The notes under the pieces are model-generated. The model saw nothing but the letters and a program-made list of their open reading frames with translations, did not search any database and was not told the DNA's origin. The position numbers and the translations under genes are program-made. A stretch of 32,323 nucleotides of DNA from Thermodesulfobacteriota bacterium (GTDB lineage Bacteria; Desulfobacterota; DSM-4660; Desulfatiglandales; Desulfatiglandaceae), in contig JAXHTA010000001.1 of assembly GCA_034190285.1 (NCBI GenBank), positions 1-32,323 on the forward strand, read 5' to 3'. This document shows, in pieces, positions 14,218 through 32,042 of the stretch; the stretch's first letter is position 1; each line of letters starts with the position of its first letter.

Positions 14218-14233
14218 TGCAATACCCGTGCCA
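14218..14233 (-). promoter_or_regulatory. Sigma-54 (-24/-12) promoter for the CBS-ACT gene
   Basis: Minus strand reads TGGCAC-GGGTA-TTGCA, a perfect consensus with GG-N10-GC spacing. It lies ~140 nt upstream of ATG 14076. Confidence 0.7.
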
Positions 14234-14338
14234 GGGCCACGTGAGGATGCCAATTAATCTAACTACTTGATACAAAGAAATATTATTGAAACATATCCAG
14301 TCCATGCAGGCGATCCGGGTGGGTTTGGCGTTGGGATT

Positions 14339-14355
14339 CTTTACAGATTGTAAAG
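14339..14355. promoter_or_regulatory. Palindrome CTTTACA-GAT-TGTAAAG, candidate enhancer-binding-protein UAS
   Basis: Perfect 7-bp inverted repeat. Its centre is ~115 nt upstream of the GG of the minus-strand sigma-54 promoter. The same palindrome recurs at 18251-18267. Confidence 0.45.
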
Positions 14356-14457
14356 CAGGAGGGCATACACGGATCCAAGAGAGTTGATGTCAGGTCGAAC
14401 AGATGTTAACATAATTGTGTAAATCCGCAGAAAGTTTGGGAAGACGAGGGAAGCCAT

Positions 14458-15957: not shown

Positions 15958-15960
15958 GCC

Positions 15961-17445
15961 ATGAATGATATCCTAATCATTGATGATGACGACCAATTAC
16001 GAATGAGTTTTGAAAAACTTTTGACATCAGAGGGTTATACGGTAAGAAACGCCTCATCAGGGGAAGCAGGCGTCAAACTGATACATGAGGGAGTCCCGGA
16101 CCTGGTCATTCTGGACTTACGGCTGCCCGGAATAAACGGGCTTGAGACCTTTCAGGTGATTCATGAAATCGAGCCAAGACTCCCGGTTATAATCATGACA
16201 GCTTATGGCACAACAGACAACGCCATAGAGGCGACCAAAATGGGGGCCTTCGACTATATCCTTAAACCTTTTGAAATCCCCGACATGCTGAATGTGATTG
16301 AGCAGGCATTGGAAGCCGATCGTTTTATGCGTTCTCCGGTGGATATCAATACAGACCCTGAAAAGGCTTCCAGGGAGGCAATCATTGGCCGTTGCAAGCC
16401 GATGCAGGATGTCTATAAGGCGATCGGGAGGGTGTCTTCCACGAACGCCACGGTTCTCATTCGGGGGGAGTCCGGTACGGGCAAGGAACTTGTGGCCCGT
16501 GCCATCTATCAACACAGCCTCCGGGCGAATAGGCCGTTTCTTGTGATCAACTGCGTGGCAATCCCTGAAAATCTACTCGAAAGCGAGTTGTTCGGCTATG
16601 AGAAAGGGGCCTTCACAGGGGCCTCCCACAGGCGTGTGGGAAAGGTTGAACAGGCCCATAATGGTACAATTTTCTTAGACGAAATTGGTGACATGCCCCC
16701 GAGCATACAGGCCAAGATCCTGAGGTTGCTCCAGGAGAGGAGTATTGAGCGTCTGGGAGGCCAAAAGACCATTCAGGTGGATGTGCGAATTATTGCCGCC
16801 ACTAATAGAAATCTGGAGAAGGCCCTTTCAGAAGGTCGTTTTCGTGAAGACCTTTATTATCGTCTCAAGGTGGTGACCGTCTGGCTTCCCCCCCTTCGCG
16901 AAAGGCAGGGTGATGTCCCCCTCCTCACGGAGTATTTTCTATCTAAGTACGCCGCTCAAATGGACATTGATGTCCCTGGTATTGGAAGGGAGAGCATTAA
17001 GGTGCTTGAAGACTATCCATGGCCTGGCAATGTTAGAGAGCTTGCCAATACCATACAGAAGACGCTGATATTCAACCGTGGAGGGCCCGTGCGGCCCGAT
17101 GCCATTACCCAGTCAATCGGAGGCAGGGATCAAGACGGAGCTAATCGTAGCATAAGCGCTGATGACACCATCCGAAAATGGGTACGAGAAAAGTTGGTGT
17201 TTGAGGCTGGTGACAATATGTTCGATTCGTGCATGGACCTGCTCGCCAGTATTCTCGTCGGCGAAGCGCTCAGCCTGACAGGCGGCAACCGTTCCCGTGC
17301 GGCCAGACTCCTTGGTCTTTCAAGACCCACCCTTCACGCAAAAATCGAAAAATACGGACTCAAACTAAAAACATCGGTAAGGGAGGAAAAAAGCCGCGAT
17401 AATTTGACCCTGGCGTTGAATAAATTTGATACCAAAACGCCTTAG
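15961..17445 (+). CDS. Sigma-54-dependent response regulator (REC - AAA+ - Fis-type HTH; NtrC family)
   Basis: REC (DLVILDLRLPG, KP). AAA+ Walker A GESGTGKE, GAFTGA loop (EKGAFTGA), Walker B FLDEIG, RVIAATN. C-terminal HTH GNRSRAARLLGLSRPTL. Confidence 0.95.
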   Translation: MNDILIIDDDDQLRMSFEKLLTSEGYTVRNASSGEAGVKLIHEGVPDLVILDLRLPGINGLETFQVIHEIEPRLPVIIMTAYGTTDNAIEATKMGAFDYILKPFEIPDMLNVIEQALEADRFMRSPVDINTDPEKASREAIIGRCKPMQDVYKAIGRVSSTNATVLIRGESGTGKELVARAIYQHSLRANRPFLVINCVAIPENLLESELFGYEKGAFTGASHRRVGKVEQAHNGTIFLDEIGDMPPSIQAKILRLLQERSIERLGGQKTIQVDVRIIAATNRNLEKALSEGRFREDLYYRLKVVTVWLPPLRERQGDVPLLTEYFLSKYAAQMDIDVPGIGRESIKVLEDYPWPGNVRELANTIQKTLIFNRGGPVRPDAITQSIGGRDQDGANRSISADDTIRKWVREKLVFEAGDNMFDSCMDLLASILVGEALSLTGGNRSRAARLLGLSRPTLHAKIEKYGLKLKTSVREEKSRDNLTLALNKFDTKTP

Positions 17446-17530
17446 ATCAGGTCGGCAAACTACTTTGGGACATTTTCGGGGTGAAAGCGCCATGATTAGC
17501 TGGCATCTATATGCTGCTTCTGCTGACTAT

Positions 17531-17546
17531 TGGCACGAGAGTTGCT
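17531..17546 (+). promoter_or_regulatory. Sigma-54 (-24/-12) promoter for the stand-alone REC gene
   Basis: TGGCAC-GAGAG-TTGCT with GG-N10-GC spacing, ~100 nt upstream of start 17648. Confidence 0.7.
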
Positions 17547-17647
17547 TTTTGATTTTTAGGTGAGTCTTTCTATCCTGCCGGGGTTATTCCTGTCAAAACA
17601 AGACTATGGAGAATTAGACGCGTTTCAACGGTCTCAAAGGTGTTTCC

Positions 17648-18079
17648 TTGGGAAAGAAGTCCACAATCCTGATAGCGGATCGGAACCCTCGCGTGAGAGA
17701 GTTTCTAAAGCGTGAGATGATGGCTGAAGGCTACCAGGTCCGGCTGGCAAAGAGCGGCAGGGAAGTCCTTGAATTTGCTTATGACCACGACCCCCTTGAC
17801 TTGCTTATATTAGACCCGGATCTTCCCGATTCAAGCGAAACGCCAATACTGGAAAAGATTGAGGATCGCATCCCCTTGCTACCGGTGGTGGTTCACGCCT
17901 TTGCCCCGGATTATGGAAACCACAGCTTCTTATCGGCTACCGTGGTTTTTGTGGAAAAGAGAGGAAATAGTATCGAGGACCTCAAAAAAACGGTTCTTGA
18001 TCTTTTGAGAAAGACCGGCGTGGATCACTCGGATATCCAAAACAGGAGTAGCCGGCACCGCCACCAGCCCCGAGGTTAA
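17648..18079 (+). CDS. Stand-alone receiver (REC) domain protein, partly degenerate
   Basis: 143 aa with a TTG start after AAAGG. ILIADRN...LLILDPDLPD...VVVHAF...VEKR is a CheY-like fold signature, but DD appears as DR and the conserved T/S appears replaced. Confidence 0.65.
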   Translation: MGKKSTILIADRNPRVREFLKREMMAEGYQVRLAKSGREVLEFAYDHDPLDLLILDPDLPDSSETPILEKIEDRIPLLPVVVHAFAPDYGNHSFLSATVVFVEKRGNSIEDLKKTVLDLLRKTGVDHSDIQNRSSRHRHQPRG

Positions 18080-18143
18080 TCAGATCAGGAAAAGATAATT
18101 AAAGCTTACGCAAAAAAAGTCCTCCCTTCACCCTTCTCCCCTC

Positions 18144-18167
18144 GGAGGCTTCAGGCGTCTCTTTTTC
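18144..18167 (+). terminator. Weak candidate intrinsic terminator
   Basis: GAGGC (18145-18149) pairs with GTCTC (18157-18161), followed by TTTTT. The stem is only 5 bp with one G-U pair. Confidence 0.3.
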
Positions 18168-18250
18168 CTTTCCGGACTTCTTGAGAACTAAATTCTTTGA
18201 GCCTTATTGGTTTAAGGCAAAGCATCAATAAGCATAGCATACGTCCGTCG

Positions 18251-18267
18251 CTTTACAATATGTAAAG
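18251..18267. promoter_or_regulatory. Palindrome CTTTACA-ATA-TGTAAAG, candidate enhancer-binding-protein UAS
   Basis: Perfect 7-bp inverted repeat. Its centre is ~116 nt upstream of the GG of the sigma-54 promoter at 18374. Same half-sites as 14339-14355. Confidence 0.45.
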
Positions 18268-18373
18268 AATATCGACAAAAAATTCGTCGCCGGGCATAAA
18301 GCCATTCCGTTTATCTCCAGAAAAACGGCCTCATTCTATACGATTAGCCACTATTGCCCGCTAACCGTGTTTT

Positions 18374-18389
18374 TGGCATACCAATTGCC
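18374..18389 (+). promoter_or_regulatory. Sigma-54 (-24/-12) promoter for the permease/HK/REC gene string
   Basis: TGGCAT-ACCAA-TTGCC with GG-N10-GC spacing, ~70 nt upstream of ATG 18460. Confidence 0.7.
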
Positions 18390-18459
18390 ATAATGTTTTC
18401 CGCCAAAGAAGATGTCTCCCATCTCTTTACAATCTGTAGATACGAATTTGGAGGAAGAC

Positions 18460-20115
18460 ATGGTTCACCGTGCTACAACCGATATCCAACGTAAAGCGAG
18501 CTTCTGGGCAAGCAAACCAGGGTACAAGCCTGTCCTGTTCATAACCGCTGCTATTGTATTTGCCGGAGTGGTTATTGCACCTCCTCCCCGGAGCATGGTT
18601 GACCTGGCGGGAAAGGCCGGACCCCCCGGTTACAGGCTGGCAGGCGGGTGTGAGACTATTACAGACTGTATCAATAAAAAGCTCCGTCCCGCGGCCTTTA
18701 AGGCATCAAGAAAAGAGGATAAACAAAAGGTCGCGGAATCGGCGCCCCTATTCACGGACAGAGAAGCGGCCCAATTGGCAAAAACAATGCTGGCCATCTT
18801 TTTCTTGGCGGTCTTTCTCTGGGCAACGGAGGCCCTGCCCCTGGGGGCCACCGATTTGCTGGCAGCAGTCATGCTGTATCTGTTTTCCATCCTTCCCATC
18901 AATGAGATCTCCAAGGCTTATATGCAAGATGCCGTATTTTTTATCTTCGGCATTCTTGTGGTTGCAGTAGGTGTGGCAAAGACCGGACTTGACAAACGGA
19001 TAGGTCTGATACTCTTGAGTCGGATAAGGAGCGCCAGGGCGTTCGGCCTCGTGTTTCTTCCGCTTCTGGCGATGTCGGCGAGCTTTTTGTCCGAGCACGC
19101 CCTTGTGGCCCTTCTTATTCCTGTCTTGATGGGCGTGTACAAAGTGACGTGCAGGATGCACGGTGTGGAAAAAGACCCGGCGCTGGCCGTCTTTCTCCTA
19201 TTGGGTATATGCTTTGCCGCGAACCATGGCGGGCCGGGGTCTCCCGCGGCGGGCGGGAGAAACGCAATTATGGTAGGCTACTTCATGGAATATGGGGCCA
19301 CCATTTCCTTTTTAGATTGGATGAAATATGGCATGCCCTTTGTCCCTCTGATGGGCATTGTCATAGGCTCCTACATGTATATACGTTTGAAACCGAAATT
19401 CCGTGTCCAGAATGTCAACCCCGGTGAGGTCATCAAGACGGAAGTTGCCAGGATGCCCAAGTTCGGCGGAAAAGAGGCCAAGATGGCGGCCATACTGGTT
19501 TGTGTGGTGAGTGCATGGATAATTCTGGGGGAGCACTCTGGATTAGGGGGGCCCACCCTCTACGCGGTCATGGCCATGTTTCTCTGCCGTATTATCACCT
19601 GGGACGATATCCAGGAGGGTGTGGCTTTAGACGTGGTCGGCCTGTACGCCGCGGCCTGCGCCATGGGAGCGGGCCTTAAATTCACCGGCGGTGCCCTCTG
19701 GCTGGCCAATGCATTTGTTGCGCTGTTGCCCGATTTTATTGCGCACGGAGACAACCTGGCAATAGGAATCAGCGTTCTGACAGGGATTATGACCAATTTC
19801 ATGAGTGACGGCGCCACGGTTGCGGCCCTTGGGCCAATCGTCCTTCCCATGGCGGAACTTGCTAATGTCCACGTGTGGAAACTGGGTCTGGCCTGCGCCT
19901 TTTCCTCTTCCTTCGCCAACTTTTTGGTTGTCGGGACCCCTAACAATGCTATTGCCTTTGGCATGGGCAAGGATCCTGAGACAGGGGAAAGATTGTTGAA
20001 CGTTTTGGATTTCGTGAAGTACGGTCTGCCGGTCACAATCCTGGCGTGGCTTGTCCTGTGGTTTTGGTCCATTCTGGGATACTGGCAGTTCATGAGTTGG
20101 CCGGGACTTCCATAA
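18460..20115 (+). CDS. DASS/SLC13-like anion permease (ion-transporter superfamily), paralog 1
   Basis: Polytopic membrane protein with two hairpin-type motifs, GGPGSPAAGGRNAIM and VVGTPNNAIAF. The ORF opens at 18412, but the ATG at 18460 follows a GGAGGA RBS and lies downstream of the predicted sigma-54 start site. Confidence 0.75.
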   Translation: MVHRATTDIQRKASFWASKPGYKPVLFITAAIVFAGVVIAPPPRSMVDLAGKAGPPGYRLAGGCETITDCINKKLRPAAFKASRKEDKQKVAESAPLFTDREAAQLAKTMLAIFFLAVFLWATEALPLGATDLLAAVMLYLFSILPINEISKAYMQDAVFFIFGILVVAVGVAKTGLDKRIGLILLSRIRSARAFGLVFLPLLAMSASFLSEHALVALLIPVLMGVYKVTCRMHGVEKDPALAVFLLLGICFAANHGGPGSPAAGGRNAIMVGYFMEYGATISFLDWMKYGMPFVPLMGIVIGSYMYIRLKPKFRVQNVNPGEVIKTEVARMPKFGGKEAKMAAILVCVVSAWIILGEHSGLGGPTLYAVMAMFLCRIITWDDIQEGVALDVVGLYAAACAMGAGLKFTGGALWLANAFVALLPDFIAHGDNLAIGISVLTGIMTNFMSDGATVAALGPIVLPMAELANVHVWKLGLACAFSSSFANFLVVGTPNNAIAFGMGKDPETGERLLNVLDFVKYGLPVTILAWLVLWFWSILGYWQFMSWPGLP

Positions 20116-20178
20116 TTAATGCTGTGCGGCGTAAAGAGCTGTATACGGGCCTTTGTTCAAATGGGGTTGTAAGCCAAT

Positions 20179-21840
20179 ATGAAGAGTTCACTTTATCTGA
20201 ATCTCCAGAGGAAGATCATTTCCCTCACCTTACTGGTTTCCTTTGCTCCGCTGATTATCCTCGGCGTGACCATGTACTGCCTGTTCTCCCGGACCGCGAG
20301 GGATAAGATCGAAGAACAGATAAGATATCGAGCAAGGTCGCAGTCAGAGGCGGTGGATCTGTTTTTAAAAGAGCGCACCGCCATTCTCGGCGCGATGGCT
20401 GAAAACCGAAATATCCTTGATATTACAGATGAAAAGAACCTTTCCCACGTATTAAATGTCATGAATTCATGGGCTGGGGCCTTTGTGGATCTGGGCGTAA
20501 TTGACAATGCGGGCCGGCACCTTGCCTATGTGGGGCCCTATGATCTTAAGGGCATGAATTACTATCAGGAACCCTGGTTTGCCGAGGTCATGAGCAAAGG
20601 GATCTATGTCAGCGATGTCTACATGGGTTTCCGGCAGTCGCCACATTTTATTATTGCCGTAAGACGCCAGGAGGACGAGAGTAGCTGGATACTAAGGGCA
20701 ACTATTGATCCGGATGTCTTTAGTGGAATCGTGAGATCAGCACAGATAGGAAAGACAGGGGATGCCTACATCATAAATAAGGCCGGCGTTTTTCAGACAG
20801 GTCCCCGGTTTGATGGGCAGATTCTGTCCAAATCCGAACTAAACCCGAGTTTATTCGGCGGAAGGACGACGGTTTCTGAGCATAAAAATGGTCGTGGCAA
20901 AAAACTTCTCTATGCGGGCAGTTGGCTCAAAAACGATAAATGGCTTCTCATCATCAGCCAGGATCCGGCCGAGCAATTGAGCGGGCTGCTTGCCGCGCGA
21001 AATGTGGAGATCAGCATCATTATTTCCGGTATCCTGGCAATTATCCTGACAACGGTTTTTACAACTCGTTTGACAGTCAACCGGCTAAAACAGACGGATT
21101 TAAGGATGGATGAACTCAATGCTCAACTTATCCAGTCTGATAAATTGGCGGCGTTAGGAAAAATGGCGGCCGGTGTCGCTCATGAAATCAACAACCCGCT
21201 GGCTGTAATTATGCAGAAGACCGGCTGGATGGAGGATCTGCTTTCTGAAGAGGATTTTCAAAGGTCCGAAAATCTTAAAGAATACAAGAAGTCCCTTACA
21301 AGCATAGACGAACACGTGGAACGGGCGCGAAAGGTCGTCCACGGGATGCTTGGTTATGCCCGCAAGATGGAGCCGCATCTGGAGGATGTGGACATAAACA
21401 CGACCTTGAACCAGACGATCAGTCTTCTGGAAAATTACGCCAAAATTAATAATATCGAGATTCAAACAGACCTCCGTCCCGATCTGCCGATTATTGCAGG
21501 TGATGAGGCCCAGCTCCAACAAGTTTTCTTGAATATCATATCCAACGCGATTGACGCAATCGGCAAGGACGGTTTGATTCAGGTAAAAAACAACTGCGTG
21601 GGTTCAACAGTCAGCGTGAGTGTTACGGATGATGGGCCGGGTATTCCCGAAGACAAACAAAAAAAGGTGTTTGACCCCTTTTTTACAACAAAGCAAACGG
21701 GTAAGGGAACGGGACTCGGGTTATGGATCACCTATGGGATCATAGAAAGGATGGGGGGGTCCATTTCATTGAAAAGCGAACCCGGTAAAGGCAGCACTTT
21801 TTCCGTTAATATCCCCATTGTGCTGCCGGAGAAGAAATGA
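20179..21840 (+). CDS. Sensor histidine kinase with extracytoplasmic Cache/PDC-like domain, paralog 1
   Basis: TM1 (LLVSFAPLIILGVTMYCLF), a ~250-aa periplasmic domain (DLGVIDNAGRHLAYVGPY...PWF...YVSDVYMGFRQSPHFIIAV...GKTGDAYIIN), then TM2. H-box AAGVAHEINNPL, N-box LNIISNAID, G1 DDGPGI, FDPFFTTK, GTGLGL. Confidence 0.9.
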   Translation: MKSSLYLNLQRKIISLTLLVSFAPLIILGVTMYCLFSRTARDKIEEQIRYRARSQSEAVDLFLKERTAILGAMAENRNILDITDEKNLSHVLNVMNSWAGAFVDLGVIDNAGRHLAYVGPYDLKGMNYYQEPWFAEVMSKGIYVSDVYMGFRQSPHFIIAVRRQEDESSWILRATIDPDVFSGIVRSAQIGKTGDAYIINKAGVFQTGPRFDGQILSKSELNPSLFGGRTTVSEHKNGRGKKLLYAGSWLKNDKWLLIISQDPAEQLSGLLAARNVEISIIISGILAIILTTVFTTRLTVNRLKQTDLRMDELNAQLIQSDKLAALGKMAAGVAHEINNPLAVIMQKTGWMEDLLSEEDFQRSENLKEYKKSLTSIDEHVERARKVVHGMLGYARKMEPHLEDVDINTTLNQTISLLENYAKINNIEIQTDLRPDLPIIAGDEAQLQQVFLNIISNAIDAIGKDGLIQVKNNCVGSTVSVSVTDDGPGIPEDKQKKVFDPFFTTKQTGKGTGLGLWITYGIIERMGGSISLKSEPGKGSTFSVNIPIVLPEKK

Positions 21841-21905
21841 AGATGATCCTATAAACTTCAAAGCCGAAGTATAGCCAATTCTGGAAAGAATTTTAGGAGG
21901 CAAAA

Positions 21906-22370
21906 ATGGACCATTTCATAGTTTTGGTCGTGGATGATGAAAAGGACTTCACGGACACCCTGGTCAATCGCTTGGACAAGAGGAATATAGATGCGGCCGG
22001 CGTTTTAAGCGGGGAGGATGCCCTTGAAGCGATGAAGGTGAGACTATTTGATGTGGTGATCCTTGACGTGAAAATGCCCGGCGGAATGGATGGGATTGAG
22101 ACGCTCAGGGAAATCAAGAAGATCCAGCCCCTTGCCGAAGTTATTTTGCTGACCGGTCACGGATCGGTGGAAACGAGCATCGAGGGGATGAAATTAGGGG
22201 CCTTCGATTACCTCCTGAAGCCCGTAAAACTGGAAGATCTCCTCGTAAAGATGGCTCAAGCCTTTGAAAAAAAAGACGCCCATGATCAGAAGATTCGAAG
22301 CGCCAGGATCAAAGAATTAATCCGTTTTCCGGGAAGGGTGTTTGATCAGGAAAAAGAAGAAGAGACATAA
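21906..22370 (+). CDS. Single-domain response regulator (REC plus ~35-aa tail)
   Basis: VVDDE, VVILDVKMPGGMDGIETL, LLTGHG and FDYLLKP. No recognisable output domain. Confidence 0.9.
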   Translation: MDHFIVLVVDDEKDFTDTLVNRLDKRNIDAAGVLSGEDALEAMKVRLFDVVILDVKMPGGMDGIETLREIKKIQPLAEVILLTGHGSVETSIEGMKLGAFDYLLKPVKLEDLLVKMAQAFEKKDAHDQKIRSARIKELIRFPGRVFDQEKEEET

Positions 22371-22381
22371 GATTTAAGGCC

Positions 22382-24070
22382 ATGAAGGAGAATCATTATT
22401 CAGGTGTAAGAAGGAGCATTTTGGGCGGCATGATTTTGGTGCCCTCCCTTCCGTTTGTCTTGGTTCTGGGCATCGGGTACTATTATTTTGCCACATCTCT
22501 CCAGACCAGCACCATCTCCAGCATGAACAGGATTGTCAAAGACCACCGTCAGATGATTGATTCGTTTTTTAGCGAGCGAAAGGCCGACCTTGGCTTTATT
22601 CTCCACACATATAAATATGAGGATCTCACGGAGTCTCAAAAACTCTATGATGTCTTTGCCGGGCTGCAACGTGTATCCAGCGCGTTCTTGGATCTTGGCG
22701 TTTTTGATGAAAAGGGCCTCCATGTCAGTTACCAGGGACCTTACAAATTGGCCGGCAGGGATTATGGGAGTGAGGGCTGGTTCAAGGAGGTTCTAAAGGA
22801 GGGCTGTTACATCAGCGATGTCTTCCTTGGCTATCGCCGCATACCCCACTTCATCATCGCCTTGGCCGGACAGGATGGTAGAAAGAAATGGGTTATTCGG
22901 GCCACCATTGATACCTACATGTTTAACGGCCTGGTCAAAAAAGTGCACATTGGCAAGACCGGTGAGTCCTACCTAATTAACAGAAACGCTGTATTCCAGA
23001 CTGAGAGACGTTCAGGCGGGAATCTTATGGATAAAGCCCCTGAAAACATCAAATACCCTTTATCCCGTAGCGGGGTAGAGAACTTCGTTTTAAAAGATCA
23101 AAGGGGAGATGCGCATTGCTATGCCACGACCTGGCTCAAAAACAAGGATTGGCTGCTGGTCGTGAGACAGGAGAAGGCGGACGCGTTCAGGCTCCTTTAT
23201 TCAGCTGGCTATCTGATCCTTCTCATTTCCATAGTGGGCGGCGGAGGCATTGTTGTTCTCGCCTTCTACATGACCGGCCGGATTGTCAGGCGAATGCAGC
23301 AGATGGATATGGAAAAAGAAAAACTGGGTGATCAGCTCATCAGGGCCGGACGATTAGCGGAATTAGGCGAGATGGCGGCAGGGTTCGCACATGAGATCAA
23401 TAATCCGCTCCAGATAATGAAGAGCGAGCAGGCGCTTATGGATGCCGTTTTTTCAGAACTGAAGGAAAAAGGCCAATTAAAGGAATCAGAGGATTTGGCC
23501 GAATTGGAGGACTCCATAGCCCAAATAAGGCTTCAAATCGAGCGTTGTTCAAAAATTACACATTCCATACTCGCCTTTGGCAGAAAAGGTGAAGCCGAAC
23601 CAACGGCCGTGGACCTACGGACTTTCATTCCTGAAGTCACAGGCATGGTCGCCAAGAAGGCAATTGTCCATGGGATTCAGATGAACCAGGCTTTATTGGA
23701 AGCCCTCCCTCCGGTTCGTGTTGACCCGGCGCTTTTTCAACAGGTCTTGCTCAATCTCTTAAACAACGCCATTGACGCGATCCTGGAAAGACATGGTGCC
23801 AGCGGCGGAGAGATGTCTATTGAAGCCCGTCCGGCAGAAAATGGAGACGTGGAGATTTCTGTCAAAGATAACGGCATCGGAATCAGCCCGGATAATCAGG
23901 AAAAGATATTCAGGCCCTTTTTTACCACGAAACCGGCAGGCAGGGGAACAGGATTAGGCCTTTCCGTATGTTACAGCATAATAGACAACATGGGTGGTGT
24001 CATGAAGTTGAGCAGTGAAAAGGGCGTTGGTACGACTGTTACGATACTCCTGCCAAAAGAGACTCGCTGA
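22382..24070 (+). CDS. Sensor histidine kinase with extracytoplasmic Cache/PDC-like domain, paralog 2
   Basis: Same architecture as 20179..21840 (DLGVFDEKGLHVSYQGPY...GWF...YISDVFLGYRRIPHFIIAL...GKTGESYLIN). H-box AAGFAHEINNPL, LNLLNNAID, DNGIGI, FRPFFTTK, GTGLGL. Confidence 0.9.
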   Translation: MKENHYSGVRRSILGGMILVPSLPFVLVLGIGYYYFATSLQTSTISSMNRIVKDHRQMIDSFFSERKADLGFILHTYKYEDLTESQKLYDVFAGLQRVSSAFLDLGVFDEKGLHVSYQGPYKLAGRDYGSEGWFKEVLKEGCYISDVFLGYRRIPHFIIALAGQDGRKKWVIRATIDTYMFNGLVKKVHIGKTGESYLINRNAVFQTERRSGGNLMDKAPENIKYPLSRSGVENFVLKDQRGDAHCYATTWLKNKDWLLVVRQEKADAFRLLYSAGYLILLISIVGGGGIVVLAFYMTGRIVRRMQQMDMEKEKLGDQLIRAGRLAELGEMAAGFAHEINNPLQIMKSEQALMDAVFSELKEKGQLKESEDLAELEDSIAQIRLQIERCSKITHSILAFGRKGEAEPTAVDLRTFIPEVTGMVAKKAIVHGIQMNQALLEALPPVRVDPALFQQVLLNLLNNAIDAILERHGASGGEMSIEARPAENGDVEISVKDNGIGISPDNQEKIFRPFFTTKPAGRGTGLGLSVCYSIIDNMGGVMKLSSEKGVGTTVTILLPKETR

Positions 24071-24293
24071 CGAGGCAAATATTTCGAAAGCTCAACGGCA
24101 ACTTCCAAAGAAAACACGGTTAGCGGAGCTGATATTTGAGCAAGAATCGGCCTTTTGAAGGTAAGACACCACGACCCGAGGGAATCTCTTTTGCCAAAGC
24201 CGAATTACAATGGGTCAGCAACAGGGCGATGAATGTTTCGAAGACCGATCAGCACTACGTTTTTGGGATGTTAGAACAACGGGGGGATATAGG

Positions 24294-24761
24294 ATGGAAC
24301 ATATGAAAATTATGTTGGTTGATGATGAGGAGAGGTTCCTTTCCACCACCAAAAAACTTCTTGCGAGGAAAGGTCATGATATTTTCACTGCAACCGGCGG
24401 CGCTGACGCCCTCGAACAACTGCGAATCCACAGTATTCACGTGGTGATCTTAGACGTCAAGATGCCAGGCATGGACGGCATTGAAACCTTGAAGGCCATT
24501 AAAAGGATTTATCCTATGGTTGAGGTGATTATGCTGACCGGTCACGGCACAGTGGATTCCGCCGTTGAAGGTTTGAAGTCCGGAGCCACGGACTATTTGA
24601 CCAAGCCCACCGATGTGAATGACCTCATTGAAAAAGCGGAAGAGGCATTTGAAAAAAGACAGAGACTGGAAGAAAAAATCCGTGTGGCCCAGGTGCGAAG
24701 CTTCATGAAGTCTCCAGGTGAGATTATTAGAGAAACCGAAAAGAGTTCACGCGAAAGATGA
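24294..24761 (+). CDS. Single-domain response regulator (REC plus ~35-aa tail), paralog of 21906..22370
   Basis: LVDDEE, VVILDVKMPGMDGIETL, MLTGHG and TDYLTKP. The ORF opens at 24210, but ATG 24294 (or 24303) preceded by a G-rich SD fits REC N-termini. Confidence 0.9.
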   Translation: MEHMKIMLVDDEERFLSTTKKLLARKGHDIFTATGGADALEQLRIHSIHVVILDVKMPGMDGIETLKAIKRIYPMVEVIMLTGHGTVDSAVEGLKSGATDYLTKPTDVNDLIEKAEEAFEKRQRLEEKIRVAQVRSFMKSPGEIIRETEKSSRER

Positions 24762-24771
24762 GGTGAAGAAA

Positions 24772-26622
24772 ATGTCTCAGGTCAAGAAAAAGGCCACGGG
24801 ATACGATAAGTATGTTGACTGGCGACTGTTCTCTATACCTGTTGTCCTGTTTTTTGCAATCCTGATCCTGCCGACGCCTTACGGGATGAAGGACGTGGGT
24901 ACGGAGGTCAAGGTCGGGCCGAAAACCGTTATTAATCTTGTCACCACGGAATTGTTTAATAACAAGAGCATAGAAGTGGCCCAGTGGGAACTTCTCACTG
25001 CCCGGATAATGGAAAGAAATATGAGGATGGGAGCGCTTTCCAGAGGTCGTTTTCTAAAACGGGACATCAAGTGGTGCGAAAAATACGAGATTCAGGCAGA
25101 TTCCGAAAACCTGAAAAAGGCTCAGGACTATATTAACGAGACAGTCAGTGATGAAAGGTTTTCCACAATTATGAAAAAGGCCGTGGAACTCAGGAGAGAC
25201 GGCCTCAAGTATGAGGAGCTTTCCGGCAGGGACAGGAAGGCCGCCGATAAAGGGGCCTGGCACATTAAGGTCGCCATAGGCATGATGGTTTTTGTGGTTT
25301 TCTGCTTCATGACGGAATGCATCCCCTTGCCGGGTGTCGCCTTTTGCATCGGTCTTATCCTTGTTTGCACGGGCGTTGTAACAAGACAGCAGGTGGCCAT
25401 GCTCTACTGGAGCGACGCCTGCTGGTTCATTATGGGGAGCCTCATGTTTGCAGCGGCCTTTGTCAAGACCGGTGTTGACAAGAGAATATGCCTCATGATG
25501 TTCAGAAAACTGGCCGTTCCCAATGTGAAATGGGTCACGCTTATTTTCTTTATAATCATTTCACCCCTTGCGGCCTTTATCTCAGACCATGCCTTAGCCG
25601 CCATGTTCCTCCCCATAGGCATGCTGCTTTACCAGAACAGCCTGACCGATGAGGTCCCGGAGGACATGGAGCTTGCCAAGATGATGATGATATCCATTGC
25701 AATGGCCTGTAACATAGGAGGCCCGGGGGCCCCGTCAGGCGGCGCAAGAAACGTAATAATGATGACCTATCTTAATGACATGTTCGGCTTTGATATCGGT
25801 TACTTCCAATGGGTCACCTATTGCTTTCCCTTTATACTGGTCATGATCCCTATAACATGGTTCACGGTGAATCTGCGCTTCAGGCCCAAGATCACTTCCC
25901 TCGCCCCTGCCATGAACCAGCTGCAAAAAGAAATAGGGAAGATGGGAGGATGGAACAAGAGGCAAATATGGGCTCTCATCATATTTGTCATTATGGTATA
26001 CGGCTGGTTCACTGAAAAGGTCTTCTTCAACATGGGTATATATCCCGTTCGTCTCGGCATAGGGGTGATAGCAGTTGCAGGCGCGGTGGCCTATCTCCTT
26101 ACCGGCGTCGTAAATTGGAGAGACTATCAGGAGAGAGTGGACTGGGGGGTAGTCTGGCTTTATGCCGGGGCCATCATCTTTGGCCGAACCCTGGACAGCA
26201 CCGGTGCTGCCTACTGGCTGGCAAGATCTGTGATTGATCTTCTCGGGCCTTTGGGAATGAATTCCGGGCTTCCCCTCATGGCGACTTCCAATGGTCTCAC
26301 GGCCATACTGACCAATCTCATGGCAGATGGCCCCGCCGCCGCCGCCGTGGGTCCAATCTCCCTTAACATGGCCGGTCTTGTCCATCCGGGTACCACATTC
26401 CTGCCATTTATGGCCATGGCCACGGCGATTGCCTCTTCCTTTGCCTACTGTTTGGTTATTGGAACGCCCCCGAATGCCATTGTTTATGCAAGCGGTTACC
26501 TTGAGCCAAGAGACTACCTTAGAGTAGGCATTGCCATGTGGCTCTTCGCAAATGTGCTGATCATCCTTCTCACAGCATTCTACTGGGGTTTCAGGGGATT
26601 TGTGGGACTAACTGGATTCTAA
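24772..26622 (+). CDS. DASS/SLC13-like anion permease, paralog 2, with a ~125-aa hydrophilic insert after TM1
   Basis: Motifs GGPGAPSGGARNVIM and VIGTPPNAIVY. ATG 24772 follows GAGGTG and lies 10 nt after the REC stop, so the upstream ORF extension to 24718 overlaps the REC gene. Confidence 0.75.
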   Translation: MSQVKKKATGYDKYVDWRLFSIPVVLFFAILILPTPYGMKDVGTEVKVGPKTVINLVTTELFNNKSIEVAQWELLTARIMERNMRMGALSRGRFLKRDIKWCEKYEIQADSENLKKAQDYINETVSDERFSTIMKKAVELRRDGLKYEELSGRDRKAADKGAWHIKVAIGMMVFVVFCFMTECIPLPGVAFCIGLILVCTGVVTRQQVAMLYWSDACWFIMGSLMFAAAFVKTGVDKRICLMMFRKLAVPNVKWVTLIFFIIISPLAAFISDHALAAMFLPIGMLLYQNSLTDEVPEDMELAKMMMISIAMACNIGGPGAPSGGARNVIMMTYLNDMFGFDIGYFQWVTYCFPFILVMIPITWFTVNLRFRPKITSLAPAMNQLQKEIGKMGGWNKRQIWALIIFVIMVYGWFTEKVFFNMGIYPVRLGIGVIAVAGAVAYLLTGVVNWRDYQERVDWGVVWLYAGAIIFGRTLDSTGAAYWLARSVIDLLGPLGMNSGLPLMATSNGLTAILTNLMADGPAAAAVGPISLNMAGLVHPGTTFLPFMAMATAIASSFAYCLVIGTPPNAIVYASGYLEPRDYLRVGIAMWLFANVLIILLTAFYWGFRGFVGLTGF

Positions 26623-26679
26623 TGGATGATAATAATACCATCTCTGCTAACGTACTGTTTTCATAAGAAGGAGAGAGTC

Positions 26680-26820
26680 ATGAAGCAGAAGAAAACCGTG
26701 TTTTACTCAAAGGGGGTTACCTATTTTGACAAAAAAGCGGAGCAGACCTTTTTCTTCATACTGACAATCATAATGCTTCTATGGGGCCTTTTCGCGAAGC
26801 TGGGTATCTTGACGGGCTAA
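26680..26820 (+). CDS. Small (46-aa) single-pass membrane protein
   Basis: AAGGAG RBS 6 nt before the ATG. Basic N-terminus (MKQKKTVFYSKG) followed by one TM (TFFFILTIIMLLWGLFAKLGIL). No homology recognised. Confidence 0.45.
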   Translation: MKQKKTVFYSKGVTYFDKKAEQTFFFILTIIMLLWGLFAKLGILTG

Positions 26821-26940
26821 GGGATCCAGTCGATTCTTTTGGGCTCTCGGAGCGGTGATTTTTCACTTCAAGGTCCTTTAAGGGATAGGACATGTCAAGA
26901 ATAATCTAACAGGATGCCCTTAAAAAAGGAGGCGAATGAA

Positions 26941-27843
26941 ATGGGCCATATGATAAAGGTCTTGATGGTGGATGATGAAGACCAGTTTCGTGCGACCACC
27001 AAGAAGCTATTGAACAGGCGGGGGTTCGAGACAATCCTGGCCGCCAGCGGCAAAGAGGCTATTGCCAAACTTCAAAAGGATCCTGATGTGGTCGTCTTAG
27101 ATATCAAGATGCCTGATATGGACGGCCATCAAGCCCTGAAGGAAATCAAAAAACGCTACCCCGATCTTCCCGTAATCATGCTTACCGGGCACGGAGCCCG
27201 CCCTTCGGCAAGGGAGGCCCTCGTCGAAGGGGCATTTGATTACCTTTCAAAACCCTGTGATATGGATCTGTTAGCCTCCAAAATAGTGGAGGCGTTCCGG
27301 CACGGGAAAAGGCAGGAACCCTCCGAAGAGAAAAACGTCATGGACGTGATGGTCCCCATTGAAGAATATACAACCTTGAAAGGAGATTCTACCATCAGGG
27401 ATGCCATCTTCGGTTTAAAAGAGTCTTTTGCATCAAAGGAATCGACAAGCAGAATCATGGAAACAGGGCACCGCTCTATCCTCGTCTTCGATAGCAGAGG
27501 AAAGGTCCAGGGTATTCTGGCTATTGCAGACTTGCTTAAAGGAATAATGCCCGCCTACCTCAGCGCGGCCAAGCCATCCACGGCAGACAGTATTGAGTAC
27601 TCCCCGATGTTCTGGAAGGGTATGTTCATAAGACAGGTCAAAGATTTATCCAAGAAAAATGTCTTAGAGATCATGTCTCCGGCCCCATTCACGATTGACG
27701 GGGAGTCGAATCTCATGGAAGCGGCCTTTATGATGATCGAAAAAAAAGCCAGGCGACTTGCTGTAGTCAGATCAGGAAAGGTTGTGGGCGTGGTTCGTGA
27801 GCAGGACCTGTTTTTTGAAATGGAGAGGATACTTAAGAGATAA
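26941..27843 (+). CDS. Response regulator with CBS-pair output domain (REC-CBS-CBS)
   Basis: MVDDED, VVVLDIKMPDMDG, MLTGHG and FDYLSKP, then two CBS repeats (VMVPIEEYTTLKGDSTIRDA...ILVFDSRGKVQGILAIADLL and IMSPAPFTIDGESNLMEAA...RRLAVVRSGKVVGVVREQDL). AAGGAGG RBS before ATG 26941. Confidence 0.85.
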   Translation: MGHMIKVLMVDDEDQFRATTKKLLNRRGFETILAASGKEAIAKLQKDPDVVVLDIKMPDMDGHQALKEIKKRYPDLPVIMLTGHGARPSAREALVEGAFDYLSKPCDMDLLASKIVEAFRHGKRQEPSEEKNVMDVMVPIEEYTTLKGDSTIRDAIFGLKESFASKESTSRIMETGHRSILVFDSRGKVQGILAIADLLKGIMPAYLSAAKPSTADSIEYSPMFWKGMFIRQVKDLSKKNVLEIMSPAPFTIDGESNLMEAAFMMIEKKARRLAVVRSGKVVGVVREQDLFFEMERILKR

Positions 27844-28380: not shown

Positions 28381-28806
28381 TTACAGGTCTTTTTCAGTGG
28401 CCAGACACAGCCTCCCGGCCCCGGCCGCCTTTGCCACATCCATAACCTTGACAGCCTTGTTCAGGATTACGCCCCTGTCGGCCCTGACAACCACCAGTTT
28501 ATCCTTCTGAGCCCCTATCATTGCCTTGAGTCTCGTAAATAGGTTGGCGATGCTGGTCTCCTGATTGTTCAAATAGGATCTCCCGTCTCGATCTACATAG
28601 ACCGTAATGGTTTGCTCTGTCTGGTGTGCAGAGGCCTTAGCCTGGGGAAGTTTGATCTTTATCCCTTCGTCCACCATGAAGTTCGTGGTCAATAGGAAAT
28701 AGATCAGAAGCATAAATACAATGTCGATCAGAGAAGTAAGCGGAGCCTGAATTTCATAACGCGGCCTTTTTTTACGATGAACCAACATAACATATTCCTT
28801 TGTCAT
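28381..28806 (-). CDS. exbD: ExbD/TolR-family biopolymer transport protein
   Basis: 141 aa. N-terminal TM with the LIDIVFMLLIYF motif and the periplasmic domain (VRADRGV...VMD.AK.AG). ATGA overlap with exbB. Confidence 0.9.
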   Translation of the reverse strand: MTKEYVMLVHRKKRPRYEIQAPLTSLIDIVFMLLIYFLLTTNFMVDEGIKIKLPQAKASAHQTEQTITVYVDRDGRSYLNNQETSIANLFTRLKAMIGAQKDKLVVVRADRGVILNKAVKVMDVAKAAGAGRLCLATEKDL

Positions 28807-29429
28807 GCATTTGCACGTCCGTTATGCAGGCCTGAAACAACCTTAATAAAGGTGACAGACCCGTCCTGTAACCGTGCCTCATAATTGTCCACACGGGAAA
28901 GAAGATAACTATGTGCTATCATGGTTGGTAAAGCAACGGCAAGGCCAAGGGCTGTGGTCATCATGGCCTCCCAGATTCCGCCTGCAAGCACGGCCGAATT
29001 TACCTTGCCCCCCATCTCTTGAATGACCATAAAGGCCTTAATCATACCGATGACCGTGCCCAACAGGCCAAGCAATGGTGCAATGTTTCCGATGGTCGCC
29101 AGCGCCTGGATATAGCGGGAAAGGCCTCTCACCTCTTCATCGGAGGCATGGGCAATTACGGTTTCAAGGGTTTCCCGATCCTGATCCTTCACCTCCAGGG
29201 CCTGTGCCAGCACTCGACCCATGGGCGAATCACTCCCCACGGCTATTTCACGGGCTTTATTATCCTCGCCATTCTTCAATTGTTCGGTGACTCTTATCTC
29301 CAGGCCCTGTCCTCGATTTCTCATTCGCGCTAGGCGGATCACCCTTTCCAGAAATATGGCCAGGGCCACAACAGAGCAAAATAGAATAGGGATAACAAGC
29401 ACACCCCCTTTTGCCAGAAATACAAACAT
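28803..29429 (-). CDS. exbB: MotA/TolQ/ExbB-family proton channel
   Basis: 208 aa with three TM segments. GNIAPLLGLLGTVIGMI and the conserved C-terminal TM (TALGLAVALP). GGGAGGA RBS. Confidence 0.9.
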   Translation of the reverse strand: MFVFLAKGGVLVIPILFCSVVALAIFLERVIRLARMRNRGQGLEIRVTEQLKNGEDNKAREIAVGSDSPMGRVLAQALEVKDQDRETLETVIAHASDEEVRGLSRYIQALATIGNIAPLLGLLGTVIGMIKAFMVIQEMGGKVNSAVLAGGIWEAMMTTALGLAVALPTMIAHSYLLSRVDNYEARLQDGSVTFIKVVSGLHNGRANA

Positions 29430-29515: not shown

Positions 29516-31285
29516 TTACTCACCCGCAATATCTTCAACATCCGGCACGCCGTCAAAATTCAGATCCTTCGCACGTCTTATCAACGCCTCAAACTCATCA
29601 TATTCTTCCCATAAATCCGCCTTCCCGTCGTTGTTGGTATCTTCATGAACGGCGGTTACCCGACTCTGCTCATAGTAATACCATGTATCCACCCGTCCAT
29701 CGGCATTGTTGTCCTTTTCCGCCCTTACAGCCTCTTCTTCATCGTTGTAAAACCAGGAGGTGTTCAGCCCACCCGTGCCACCATCATCCTCTTCACTTCT
29801 TTTGAGCTTGCCGTTTGCATCATAATGCTCTCTCAGATTCAGACACCCGTCTTCATCTTCATCAAGCTCTTTAAGCCTTAACACCCCATTGTCATAGCAA
29901 TACCGGGCTTCCACAGACTGGTTGCCATTATAGTCCATCTCAGTAACAACCGACCAAGGAGAACGATCAAACCACTGGGTGGTCTCAAACCTGCCGTCAT
30001 GGTCCTGGTCCATAATCAGCCTGGCTTTTTTCTCATCCCTGTAAAACACTTTCATATCAACCGCGCCGTCCCCATTTTCGTCTTTTTCCGTTCTCACAAG
30101 CTTACCGTGGCGATAGCGTTGCCAGATATCCATCTTTCCATCAAGGTCGGAATCCTTTTCCAACCTTTCCTTTTCTTCGTGCTTGTCAAAAAAGATCTTT
30201 AGATCCGGCTTTCCATCTCGATTTTCATCCTGTGTCCGGAGGTACATTTTTCCTTTCTTGAAAAGCGAGACGATACCCATGTGCCCATCGCCCTTGTCGT
30301 CGTATTCCACCCTTATCGGTTCACCATCTTCATAGGTCCTGATCCTGTCTATCCGTCCTGTATATCGGGTGTCCTCCTCAATCTTTGAGGGCAGGCCCTC
30401 GGAGTCAAACCAGCAGAAAACGTCTTTTTTCCCGTCAAAGTTGGCGTCCTTTTCCTGATAAATGGGTTTGCCGTTCTCATATCGCAGAAGGATGTCAAAC
30501 ACCTTATCCAGGTTCGAGTCTTTTTTTTGTTCAAAGGGCTGTGAGTCCCTGAAAGAAGTGACAATTTCAAACCATCCATCAAGGTCCGCGTCCTTTTTCT
30601 GTTCCAGAATTTGCCCCTGTTGATAGAATCGAAAGGTTTCCATGCTTCCGTCCTCGTCAAGATCGTGACGGCTCCTCTCCGGAAGGCCCTCTGAATCATA
30701 GAACACGATCCTTTCTACCCGTCCGTCACCGTCTGCATCCACCTTTTGTTCAGCCGGTTTCTCATTCTTGTACGTCAGCCAGATGTTTGGTTTCAGGTCT
30801 TTGTCCGTATCCCTGGTATAAGAAGAGAGCAGGCCGTCCTTATATAAGTAGATCATGTCAAACATGCCATCATTGGTCGTGTCTTTTTCTACCTTAAGGG
30901 GACGCTCCTTTTCATCAAAACAGACGACCTGTGTGATTTTGCCTGAGCTATTCAAACGTTCGCACCGGACCCTCTTTTCTTTTTCAAAATAGTCCCGGCT
31001 GTCAATTTTTTGATCGTGATCAGAATCTCTTTCAGCCCTGATCAATAATTCATTTTGATAATACTGGAAACGGTCCATGATACCGTCTCCATTACTGTCG
31101 ATTTCAAGCCCCAGGACCCTTCCTGTTCCATCAAGGTGGATGATTCGATCTGTTTTTCCATCGTCATCCGTATCTCTTTCCACGACCTTGCCTTTTGCCA
31201 GGGCCGGGCCCATGGGGAATACCCAGAGGGTCCACATCAGGGCCAAAAATCCTAAATGGACGAAAATCGAAAATCTCCCGCTCAC
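29516..31285 (-). CDS. Secreted protein built from ~22 tandem 24-residue DxDxDG (calcium-loop-like) repeats
   Basis: Repeat consensus is roughly [KE]D.[DN].DG..D....[YF]..[GE]......, for example KDSDLDGKMDIWQRYRHGKLVRTE and KDENGDGAVDMKVFYRDEKKARLI. The ORF opens at 31450 but overlaps tonB. GTG 31285 (or TTG 31300) gives a signal peptide SGRFSIFVHLGFLALMWTLWVFPMGPALA-KG. Confidence 0.75.
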   Translation of the reverse strand: MSGRFSIFVHLGFLALMWTLWVFPMGPALAKGKVVERDTDDDGKTDRIIHLDGTGRVLGLEIDSNGDGIMDRFQYYQNELLIRAERDSDHDQKIDSRDYFEKEKRVRCERLNSSGKITQVVCFDEKERPLKVEKDTTNDGMFDMIYLYKDGLLSSYTRDTDKDLKPNIWLTYKNEKPAEQKVDADGDGRVERIVFYDSEGLPERSRHDLDEDGSMETFRFYQQGQILEQKKDADLDGWFEIVTSFRDSQPFEQKKDSNLDKVFDILLRYENGKPIYQEKDANFDGKKDVFCWFDSEGLPSKIEEDTRYTGRIDRIRTYEDGEPIRVEYDDKGDGHMGIVSLFKKGKMYLRTQDENRDGKPDLKIFFDKHEEKERLEKDSDLDGKMDIWQRYRHGKLVRTEKDENGDGAVDMKVFYRDEKKARLIMDQDHDGRFETTQWFDRSPWSVVTEMDYNGNQSVEARYCYDNGVLRLKELDEDEDGCLNLREHYDANGKLKRSEEDDGGTGGLNTSWFYNDEEEAVRAEKDNNADGRVDTWYYYEQSRVTAVHEDTNNDGKADLWEEYDEFEALIRRAKDLNFDGVPDVEDIAGE

Positions 31286-31340
31286 GTGTCTGTTCCTCAA
31301 ATTGGTTTGGATCCCCCCCTCATTCCACCCGGAAAGCAGA

Positions 31341-32042
31341 TCAGGTTGTCTCAAATATAATATTAAGTTCCAGAGGGATGTCGCCTTCAAAGTGCCTGCG
31401 GGGGGGGCTCGGGAAAGGCGCTGAGTCCTGGATGGCCTGAAGCGCCGCATTATCCAGGCTCTGGTGTCTGGACGGCTTAACGACCTTGAGGTCCCTTACA
31501 TTCCCCAGGAGGGTAATGGTAAACCCTACAGTCACCCGCCCTTCTATGTTTCTGGATTTTGCCGCCTCCGGATATCTTTTTTTTGCTTCTATCCTGAGAA
31601 TCACCATTTCAAAGTAGCTGTCGGGCGTACTGTAATCCGCAGTATCTGTCAACTCTCCCAGGCTGTAAGCGTCGCCATTCATGCCCTCGGGGATGTCCGG
31701 TATGCCTATCCCCACCATGAGACCGTCGGACAGGTTGCTGTCCGCGGAGTCCAATTTAATAGGCCTGAATTTGGGTATACGCCGCTGGGTTATCCGGAGT
31801 TTTTCTATTTTCCGCGGCTTTTCGGGCGTTTTTGGCCTCTGTTTCGGACGCGGAATATCCCGGGTTAAAGGTTTGGAGATATCCTGTAAAGTAAGCTCAA
31901 TGGCCTGTAACATATTTGAATTATAGACCCCGGAAATATGCAGACAAAGAATGGCATGTATCCCGATAGAAATACCGATCAGCCCGCGAAATAACCAGTT
32001 GGGCTTTCTTTTGATGGCGCAACTTGTTTGCATGTTATTCAT
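31341..32042 (-). CDS. tonB: Energy transducer TonB
   Basis: N-terminal TM anchor, a Pro/Lys-rich spacer (RPKQRPKTPEKPRK), and the C-terminal TonB_C motif (YPEAAKSRNIEGRVTVGFTI...G.V..LKVVKPS....LD.AAL.AI). Confidence 0.85.
   Translation of the reverse strand: MNNMQTSCAIKRKPNWLFRGLIGISIGIHAILCLHISGVYNSNMLQAIELTLQDISKPLTRDIPRPKQRPKTPEKPRKIEKLRITQRRIPKFRPIKLDSADSNLSDGLMVGIGIPDIPEGMNGDAYSLGELTDTADYSTPDSYFEMVILRIEAKKRYPEAAKSRNIEGRVTVGFTITLLGNVRDLKVVKPSRHQSLDNAALQAIQDSAPFPSPPRRHFEGDIPLELNIIFETT

Follow-up and report, generated by a model that had tools for sequence, protein, structure and literature searches.

A putative sulfate-uptake island with sigma-54 promoters and a conserved enhancer-like palindrome in a Desulfobacteraceae-like bacterium

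The window analyzed here is a 32,323-nucleotide stretch of DNA (assembly GCA_034190285.1, contig JAXHTA010000001.1, positions 1–32,323), the host of which is best explained as an uncultured Desulfobacteraceae-like bacterium. It contains a string of eight genes for two permeases of the DASS family, two Cache-type sensor histidine kinases, three response regulators, and a small membrane peptide, and this string is the central part of a larger island for regulation and uptake (∼13396–27843). We propose that the island is of a published sulfate-uptake type and that it is switched by sigma-54 via a conserved palindrome, with Cache kinases as sensors, the permeases as importers, and the receivers in a tuning role. 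For this explanation as a whole, we estimate a probability of roughly 0.6. Our confidence is highest for membership in the published cluster type and decreases from a sigma-54 activator acting at the palindrome to sulfate import, to the pairing of kinases with receivers, and finally to the roles of the receivers.

The gene content was established from a listing of open reading frames and from Pfam and NCBIfam profile searches, with starts refined by Shine–Dalgarno sequences and ortholog lengths. This confirmed all eight genes on the + strand, in the order and with the domains that a sequence-only reading of positions 18374–27843 had listed. They encode DASS-family permease 1 (PERM1, 18460–20115; 551 amino acids, a putative sulfate carrier), dCache sensor histidine kinase 1 (HK1, 20179–21840), a single-domain receiver of 154 amino acids with a conserved C-terminal tail of ∼35 residues (REC1, 21906–22370), dCache sensor histidine kinase 2 (HK2, 22382–24070), a second single-domain receiver of 155 amino acids that also has a conserved C-terminal tail (REC2, 24294–24761), DASS-family permease 2 (PERM2, 24772–26622; 616 amino acids), a conserved 46-amino acid membrane peptide with a single helix (26680–26820), and a receiver joined to a CBS pair (REC-CBS, 26941–27843; 300 amino acids, as in its orthologs). 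The start of PERM1, formerly placed at 18412, was moved to the ATG at 18460, which follows the Shine–Dalgarno sequence GGAGGA and agrees with an ortholog length of 549–551 amino acids. The open reading frame of the 46-amino acid peptide is preceded by AAGGAGAG. The intergenic gaps measure, in order, 63, 65, 11, 223, 10, 57, and 120 nt, which reproduces the range of 10–120 nt and the single gap of 223 nt given earlier.

The components are diverged paralogs, as had been proposed. PERM1 and PERM2 share 30% identity, HK1 and HK2 37% over their full length, and REC1 and REC2 44%, and the receiver of REC-CBS is closest to REC2 (50%). HK1 combines a dCache_1 domain (62.4 bits) with HisKA and HATPase domains; the dCache_1 match of HK2 (31.7 bits) is under the Pfam cut-off. 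The sensor blocks that had been picked out as common to both kinases (DLGV.D..G.H..Y.GPY, SDV..G.R..PHFIIA, and GK.G[DE]) proved to be invariant or nearly so in 16–20 homologs of 41–78% identity, and 37 columns, including R152, H156, R173, and R210, are invariant in 16 sensors of 35–78% identity. A structure model of the HK1 sensor adopts the dCache fold (mean predicted local distance difference test score, pLDDT, of 85.7) and is matched best by dCache ligand-binding domains such as those of PctB, DctB, and KinD; this structural search indicated no ligand. The sequence motifs shared by the three REC domains are equally real. In the Pfam and NCBIfam searches, REC1 and REC2 contain Response_reg only and REC-CBS contains Response_reg and two CBS stretches, with no DNA-binding domain in any of them, in agreement with the earlier statement that the three response regulators lack such an output. 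A C-terminal winged helix (Trans_reg_C) is likewise absent from REC1, REC2, and REC-CBS, and their “OmpR family” names are automatic labels.

The same genes keep company in related genomes. A scan of species-representative genomes with the sensor-domain alignment yielded at least 589 relatives, and 79 loci were examined. Almost all of these are labeled Desulfobacterales, Desulfatiglandales, or unresolved “delta proteobacterium,” and two Desulfosarcina genomes are among them. Two modules recur in either order, namely [PERM1-HK1-REC1] and [HK2-REC2-PERM2-peptide-REC-CBS]. REC1 is the next gene after HK1 in 80 of 83 evaluable cases, and REC2 comes next after HK2 in 28 of 32; PERM1 directly precedes HK1 in 53 cases, and PERM2 adjoins REC-CBS, which can stand on either side, in 21 of 21 evaluable loci. 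The closest relative, a Desulfobacteraceae metagenome-assembled genome (L016), matches the window in the order of all eight genes and also in the 11-nt REC1–HK2 junction. At least 15 of 22 loci (L003, L010, L011, L013, L015, L016, L022, L032, L048, L057, L063, L079, and others) have beside PERM2 a homolog of the 46-amino acid peptide, recognizable by the motif G[IV]TYF.K.TER.FFF.LT.IML, either 26–250 nt after PERM2 or just before it. The peptide looks like an accessory subunit of PERM2. Two-component and transporter genes belong to families that are common in these genomes and might have come together by chance, but the gene order persists in dozens of species-level genomes and cis-elements are shared, which refutes this explanation; we give it next to no credence. 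The neighborhood comparison, in which synteny was kept in 79 Desulfobacterales loci, thus upheld the earlier proposal of one conserved functional unit.

The architecture had not been recognized as a characterized system; however, a cluster of this type was published in 2025. It is a “DASS-type sulfate transporter” cluster of Desulfosarcina variabilis 3be13 that spans 30.5 kb and is conserved in 26 sulfate reducers (PMC11887813; Sci Adv 2025). Of all our inferences, the one ranked highest is that the string belongs to this cluster type, which is putative and experimentally uncharacterized. Many two-component systems are encoded in the published cluster, along with CBS proteins and a “response regulator with CBS domain”; the legend of its Fig. 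S21 names these last two categories as well as response regulators. The authors noted conserved residues in the Cache sensors and proposed sulfate as the effector, with the CBS proteins adding a second level of control that senses the energy state; in their proteome data, DASS carriers were constitutive and belonged to the abundant membrane proteins of Desulfosarcina grown on sulfate (PMC11887813). In the window, we find DASS carriers, Cache kinases with the conserved sensor residues, response regulators, CBS proteins, and a REC-CBS protein. The parts list is the same, and the taxonomic home may be shared, given the labels of nearly all relatives; the likeness to Dvar_38230/Dvar_38430 is one by description only. 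Two Desulfosarcina loci of our own set (L078 and L079), taken as a proxy, contain the same modules, with permeases 70–77% identical to those of the window. Unlike the island in the window, the published cluster extends over 30.5 kb and includes universal stress proteins. Moreover, its regulators are called “WalR type” and are drawn on promoters, whereas the regulators of the string have no DNA-binding domain.

The sequence-only reading had described the string as sigma-54-driven, and position 18374 indeed begins a −24/−12 element (18374–18389, + strand, TGGCATACCAATTGCC) that has two mismatches and keeps both the GG and the GC. Its counterpart before PERM1 in L016 reads TGGCATACCTATTGCC. Two perfect elements precede the genes of a CBS-pair protein (14218–14233, − strand, TGGCACGGGTATTGCA) and of a degenerate receiver (17531–17546, + strand, TGGCACGAGAGTTGCT), both upstream of the string. 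A further sigma-54-like site (12147–12162, + strand, TGGCACGGTTCTTGAT) is doubtful, the invariant C of the −12 GC being absent. By comparing the regions upstream of sigma-54 promoters, we found an enhancer-like palindrome, CTTTACA-N3-TGTAAAG, of which the window has two perfect 17-bp copies, each starting 122–123 nt upstream of the start of a sigma-54 element. The first (CTTTACA-GAT-TGTAAAG, 14339–14355) is situated in a divergent region beside a kinase gene, 122 nt upstream of the promoter at 14233, and the second (CTTTACA-ATA-TGTAAAG, 18251–18267) is 123 nt upstream of the PERM1 promoter. A weak copy with two mismatches (12027–12043, + strand, TTTTACAACCTGCAAAG) precedes the doubtful site at 12147 by 120 nt and may mark another member of the regulon. 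These target promoters fit the −24 GG/−12 GC type with an upstream enhancer that is used by NtrC-type activators. Before REC2, PERM2, and REC-CBS, a search of the window found neither a sigma-54 promoter nor a palindrome.

Two further sequence features touch the PERM1 promoter. A third, imperfect copy of the palindrome (18425–18441, CTTTACAATCTGTAGAT) lies in the PERM1 leader, downstream of the promoter, and has no counterpart at that position in relatives. A perfect inverted match of 16 nt (18358–18373/24111–24126, CCGCTAACCGTGTTTT) has one arm abutting the −24 element and the other in the 223 nt that separate HK2 from REC2; relatives do not share it.

Across the related loci, sigma-54-like elements are enriched upstream of the orthologs of PERM1 (23/47), HK2 (19/31), and the degenerate receiver (7/8) and are scarce upstream of those of HK1 (2/83), REC1 (4/144), PERM2 (0/21), and REC-CBS (0/23); the background rate amounts to 0.03 elements in 410 nt. 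In 1.19 Mb of sequence from these loci, 62 sites share the invariant core TTTACA-N3-TGTAAA, and a sigma-54 element follows 57 of them. The spacing is 120–124 nt at 46 sites and 111–114 nt at 9 sites, the second class being shorter by one helical turn. Counted by locus, the palindrome stands ∼122 nt before a sigma-54 promoter in 44 of 79. As a control, we searched 849 kb around unrelated NtrC genes (77 loci of a metagenome scan with the activator described below, its three close relatives being L080–L082). Four palindrome sites were found, and only one was paired with a sigma-54 promoter. This site belongs to L081, a locus that contains an ortholog of the activator (67%), its kinase, a DASS permease, Cache kinases, and REC-CBS.

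A candidate binder of the palindrome is encoded beside the string. A histidine kinase with a periplasmic four-helix-bundle sensor (4HB_MCP/CHASE3; the 4HB kinase, 14458–15957, + strand) is followed by its presumed partner, an NtrC-type sigma-54 activator with REC, AAA+, and HTH_8 domains (15961–17445, + strand) that starts 3 nt past the kinase stop. The activator possesses Walker A and GAFTGA motifs and a Fis-type helix-turn-helix (HTH_8), as sigma-54 activators do. It scores 246 bits with Sigma54_activat and 484.7 bits with TIGR01818, less than the equivalog cut-off of 558.6 bits, and hence is not an NtrC equivalog. The kinase–activator pair is conserved in L001, L005, L008, L076, L081, and L082 and adjoins the cluster in L001, L005, L008, L076, and L081. 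We suggest that the activator binds the palindrome and turns on the island and regard it as the most likely binder, based on its adjacency in the window and in L001, L005, L008, and L081 and on the control around unrelated NtrC genes. The 4HB kinase would phosphorylate the activator, and the Cache kinases possibly do so as well. A conserved palindrome ∼122 nt before sigma-54 promoters, together with the adjacent kinase and activator, argues that transcription is a conserved output of the system. The opposite view, that signaling ends in other control “rather than transcription,” came from a reading that began at 18374 and thus missed the 4HB kinase, the NtrC-type activator, and the conserved palindrome.

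All NtrC-like genes of the 79 loci were compared by their helix-turn-helix, and true orthologs of the activator are present in L001, L005, L008, and L076 only. Activators of ∼40% identity have a different helix-turn-helix, so the same binding site cannot be assumed for them. In several loci (L015, L017, L064–L066, L068, L073, and L164), a third Cache-like kinase (∼38% to HK1) is paired with such a different NtrC-type activator (∼40%, different helix-turn-helix), and these pairs are placed downstream of the PERM1-HK1-REC1 module.

Because of their adjacency and the similarity of the receivers, we assign REC1 to HK1 and both REC2 and REC-CBS to HK2. HK1 would accordingly phosphorylate REC1, and HK2 would phosphorylate REC2. 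REC1, REC2, REC-CBS, and the activator all retain the acidic pair, the phospho-acceptor aspartate, and the conserved threonine and lysine. The receivers match NtrC-family receivers best, with those of DctD and NtrC1 among the top matches, and the conserved tails of REC1 and REC2 resemble the linker between the receiver and the AAA+ domain of the activator. REC1 and REC2, as receivers with a linker of the NtrC-family type, may therefore tune the activator/kinase network, either as phosphate sinks or as partners of the receiver of the activator. REC-CBS might receive phosphate from HK2, read an adenosine-type ligand (ATP, AMP, or adenosine 5′-phosphosulfate (APS)), and adjust PERM2. A sequence search of solved structures returned no REC-CBS protein, and a literature search returned no characterized REC-CBS regulator.

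Alternatively, REC1, REC2, and REC-CBS could, once phosphorylated, bind the DASS permeases, perhaps together with the 46-amino acid peptide, and gate transport, while sigma-54 sets expression only. For REC-CBS, this gating is compatible with the explanation that we prefer, and the constant position of REC-CBS beside PERM2 in the 21 evaluable loci speaks for it; for REC1 and REC2, it is a competing role. The lack of a DNA-binding domain in all three receivers is in line with gating, as are the 53 cases in which PERM1 directly precedes HK1-REC1, and the conserved tail of REC1 and REC2 might serve as a docking helix. Regulation of transporters by CBS and SPX domains has precedents in MgtE and the DASS relative Pho90. 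On the other hand, in ∼20 loci, orthologs of HK1-REC1 (∼62%) lie in strings of receivers and kinases with no permease within 10 kb (among them L030, L031, L035, L039, and L045), and the receivers with their tails resemble the NtrC-type receiver–linker. We regard gating by all three receivers as rather doubtful. The suggestion of the sequence-only reading that the permeases themselves are controlled fits the position of REC-CBS but is weakened for the other receivers by the permease-free HK1-REC1 loci. A more radical form, in which REC1/REC2, REC-CBS, and the 46-amino acid peptide are subunits of the DASS permeases and a phosphorelay plus a sensor of an adenosine ligand (ATP/AMP/APS) gate sulfate import on top of a Desulfobacterales-wide sigma-54 regulon with the TTTACA-N3-TGTAAA enhancer as its hallmark, appears unlikely to us.

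Both permeases match Na_sulph_symp (PF00939, cut-off 27 bits), PERM1 with 137.8 bits and PERM2 with 152.9 bits. With TIGR00785 (cut-off 198.6 bits), PERM2 reaches 213.4 bits, and PERM1 stays just below with 192.2 bits. By sequence, the permeases belong to the same fold family as VcINDY (E = 4e-24) and SLC13 (DASS, TC 2.A.47), from which they differ in the SNT motifs and in an insertion after helix 1. This Lys/Arg-rich insertion connects helix 1 to the DASS core and comprises ∼60 residues in PERM1 (18460–18810) and ∼140 residues in PERM2 (24772–25320; between membrane helices 1 and 2), with no Pfam match. Judging from the topology of VcINDY, it presumably faces the periplasm, as do the Cache sensors. 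Behind the first hairpin lies a conserved GG.RN motif.

We consider PERM1 and PERM2 putative sulfate importers for two reasons, namely the expression and proteome data published for homologous clusters and the link of the Cache sensor family to three unrelated families of putative sulfate carriers. In Desulfobacterium autotrophicum, expression of the DASS genes HRM2_38230 and HRM2_38300 goes with low sulfate and that of HRM2_40290 with high sulfate (PMC5840216, summarizing Tarpgaard 2017). HRM2_38230 and HRM2_38300 are diverged, sulfate-dependent DASS paralogs only a few genes apart, and we liken them to PERM1 and PERM2 by description only. Besides DASS carriers, the sensor family accompanies SulP carriers (PMC11887813), and in L161 a distant homolog of the sensor lies beside a TauE/TSUP carrier. 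The distant Cache-kinase contexts (L160–L164) come from frameshift-rich assemblies and lend partial support only. According to our proposal, the Cache kinases would sense periplasmic sulfate, alone or jointly with the neighboring permease. The earlier statement that the substrate cannot be read from sequence holds for sequence alone; the published data and the linkage of sensor and carrier point to sulfate. In the same distant group, the sensor-kinase homologs of L161 (4795–6895) and L163 (15–751), with 41–45% identity, stand beside genes of the DVU0150 family, TauE/TSUP, DUF4881, and universal stress proteins.

The substrate could also be another anion (a di- or tricarboxylate, phosphate, thiosulfate, sulfite, or some other oxyanion), with the sulfate label being carried over from family annotation. 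DASS proteins transport carboxylates, sulfate, or phosphate, and the nearest solved relatives are VcINDY (carboxylate), SLC13, and Pho90 (phosphate). The orthologs are automatically named “sodium-dependent dicarboxylate transporter,” carboxylates are ligands of some dCache sensors, for example DctB, the SNT motifs deviate, and PstS-like and rhodanese-like secreted proteins are neighbors. Nevertheless, another anion seems unlikely. The homologous genes of D. autotrophicum respond to the sulfate concentration, and DASS carriers are abundant and constitutive in the membrane of sulfate-grown Desulfosarcina (PMC11887813). For a sensor family that occurs with DASS, SulP, and TauE/TSUP, the common candidate substrate is a sulfur oxyanion. 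In addition, PERM1 is unusually conserved, with 77–86% identity over >120 sequence clusters, and apart from a few generic or evidently mislabeled titles, all named relatives retrieved are labeled Desulfobacterales or related Thermodesulfobacteriota.

Several observations weigh against sulfate import under a sigma-54 activator at the palindrome as we propose it. In most related loci, the palindrome is present, and no ortholog of the activator of the window is found within 10 kb, so the binder could be another activator. In the window, no palindrome lies upstream of the degenerate-receiver promoter (17531), and neither a sigma-54 promoter nor a palindrome precedes HK2, from which it follows that the two modules form one string behind the 18374 promoter in this lineage. 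Direct reading of the DHp helix showed that the residues past the phospho-histidine differ among the three kinases, which argues for insulated rather than converging pathways. Finally, the two Ser-Asn-Thr (SNT) motifs at the hairpin tips of DASS carriers, which in VcINDY bind Na+ and substrate, are absent in the alignment with VcINDY. PERM1 has S-E-H and S-D-G (residues ∼211–213 and 449–451) and PERM2 has S-D-H and A-D-G, with Asp or Glu at the Na+-binding Asn position of both hairpin tips in both permeases; coupling ion and substrate may thus differ from those of known DASS carriers.

Among characterized systems, DctB/DctD/DctA of rhizobia shares with the island a periplasmic dCache kinase, an enhancer-binding sigma-54 activator, and an anion carrier as the target, and its transporter acts as a co-sensor. 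In contrast to DctB and DctD, HK1 and HK2 are paired with single-domain receivers, and the activator has its own 4HB kinase. The carrier is of the DASS rather than the DAACS family, and REC-CBS and CBS proteins are additional. The PhoR/PhoB-Pst system, which was used as an analogy in PMC11887813, also has a kinase for anion limitation that controls genes of high-affinity uptake. However, PhoB binds DNA through a winged helix at promoters of the sigma-70 type, and PhoR lacks a periplasmic sensor, whereas the island features sigma-54 promoters and adjacent regulators without DNA-binding domains.

The remaining genes of the island lie upstream of the string. The CBS-pair protein (13396–14076, − strand; 226 amino acids) matches CBS with 115 bits in two stretches, and its C-terminal ∼85 residues have no domain assignment. 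Its gene is divergent to that of the 4HB kinase and has the perfect sigma-54 promoter and a palindrome upstream. The degenerate receiver (17648–18079, + strand; 143 amino acids), the orthologs of which head the cluster in many loci, retains the phospho-acceptor aspartate; its acidic pair is D-R, the threonine is replaced by histidine, and K-P has become K-T. Downstream of this gene, we located a terminator-like hairpin with a T-run (18144–18170, + strand). A secreted PstS-like anion-binding protein (PBP_like_2, 12403–13206, + strand) is a possible member of the regulon, its gene being the one downstream of the weak palindrome copy and the doubtful sigma-54-like site. No ATP-binding cassette transporter is encoded near it, and in L013 a homolog with 37% identity stands before the HK2 module. 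Immediately before the island, at 11198–11827, lies the gene of a secreted rhodanese-like protein (209 amino acids with a signal peptide), the sulfur chemistry of which fits the theme of sulfur oxyanions. Outside the island, the − strand encodes a 644-residue protein (29516–31450) with many Asp-rich repeats of ∼35 residues and no confident Pfam match, flanked by ExbB/ExbD (28381–29429) and by a TonB-like gene on the opposite strand (31341–32042). A tRNA gene (3064–3137) is the sole Rfam match in the window, and the Rfam search found no RNA element in the region of the string.

In the window, the published cluster type appears in a clean, compact form, and three points are added to the published model. 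First, an enhancer palindrome is conserved, and its distance to sigma-54 promoters is fixed and helically phased; PMC11887813 makes no mention of sigma-54, an NtrC-type activator, or an enhancer or palindrome for the cluster, and the palindrome is not in the Desulfovibrio vulgaris sigma-54 regulome paper. Second, a candidate activator/kinase pair is encoded beside the cluster. Third, the adjacent regulators lack DNA-binding domains, and since they cannot bind DNA, the step from regulator to promoter drawn in the published model requires a further component. If the receivers and the 46-amino acid peptide were indeed permease subunits, the system would be a two-component system that has a transporter, not a gene, as its output. 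Sulfate uptake, which such an island would control, initiates dissimilatory sulfate reduction, a process responsible for a large share of the carbon mineralization in marine sediments.

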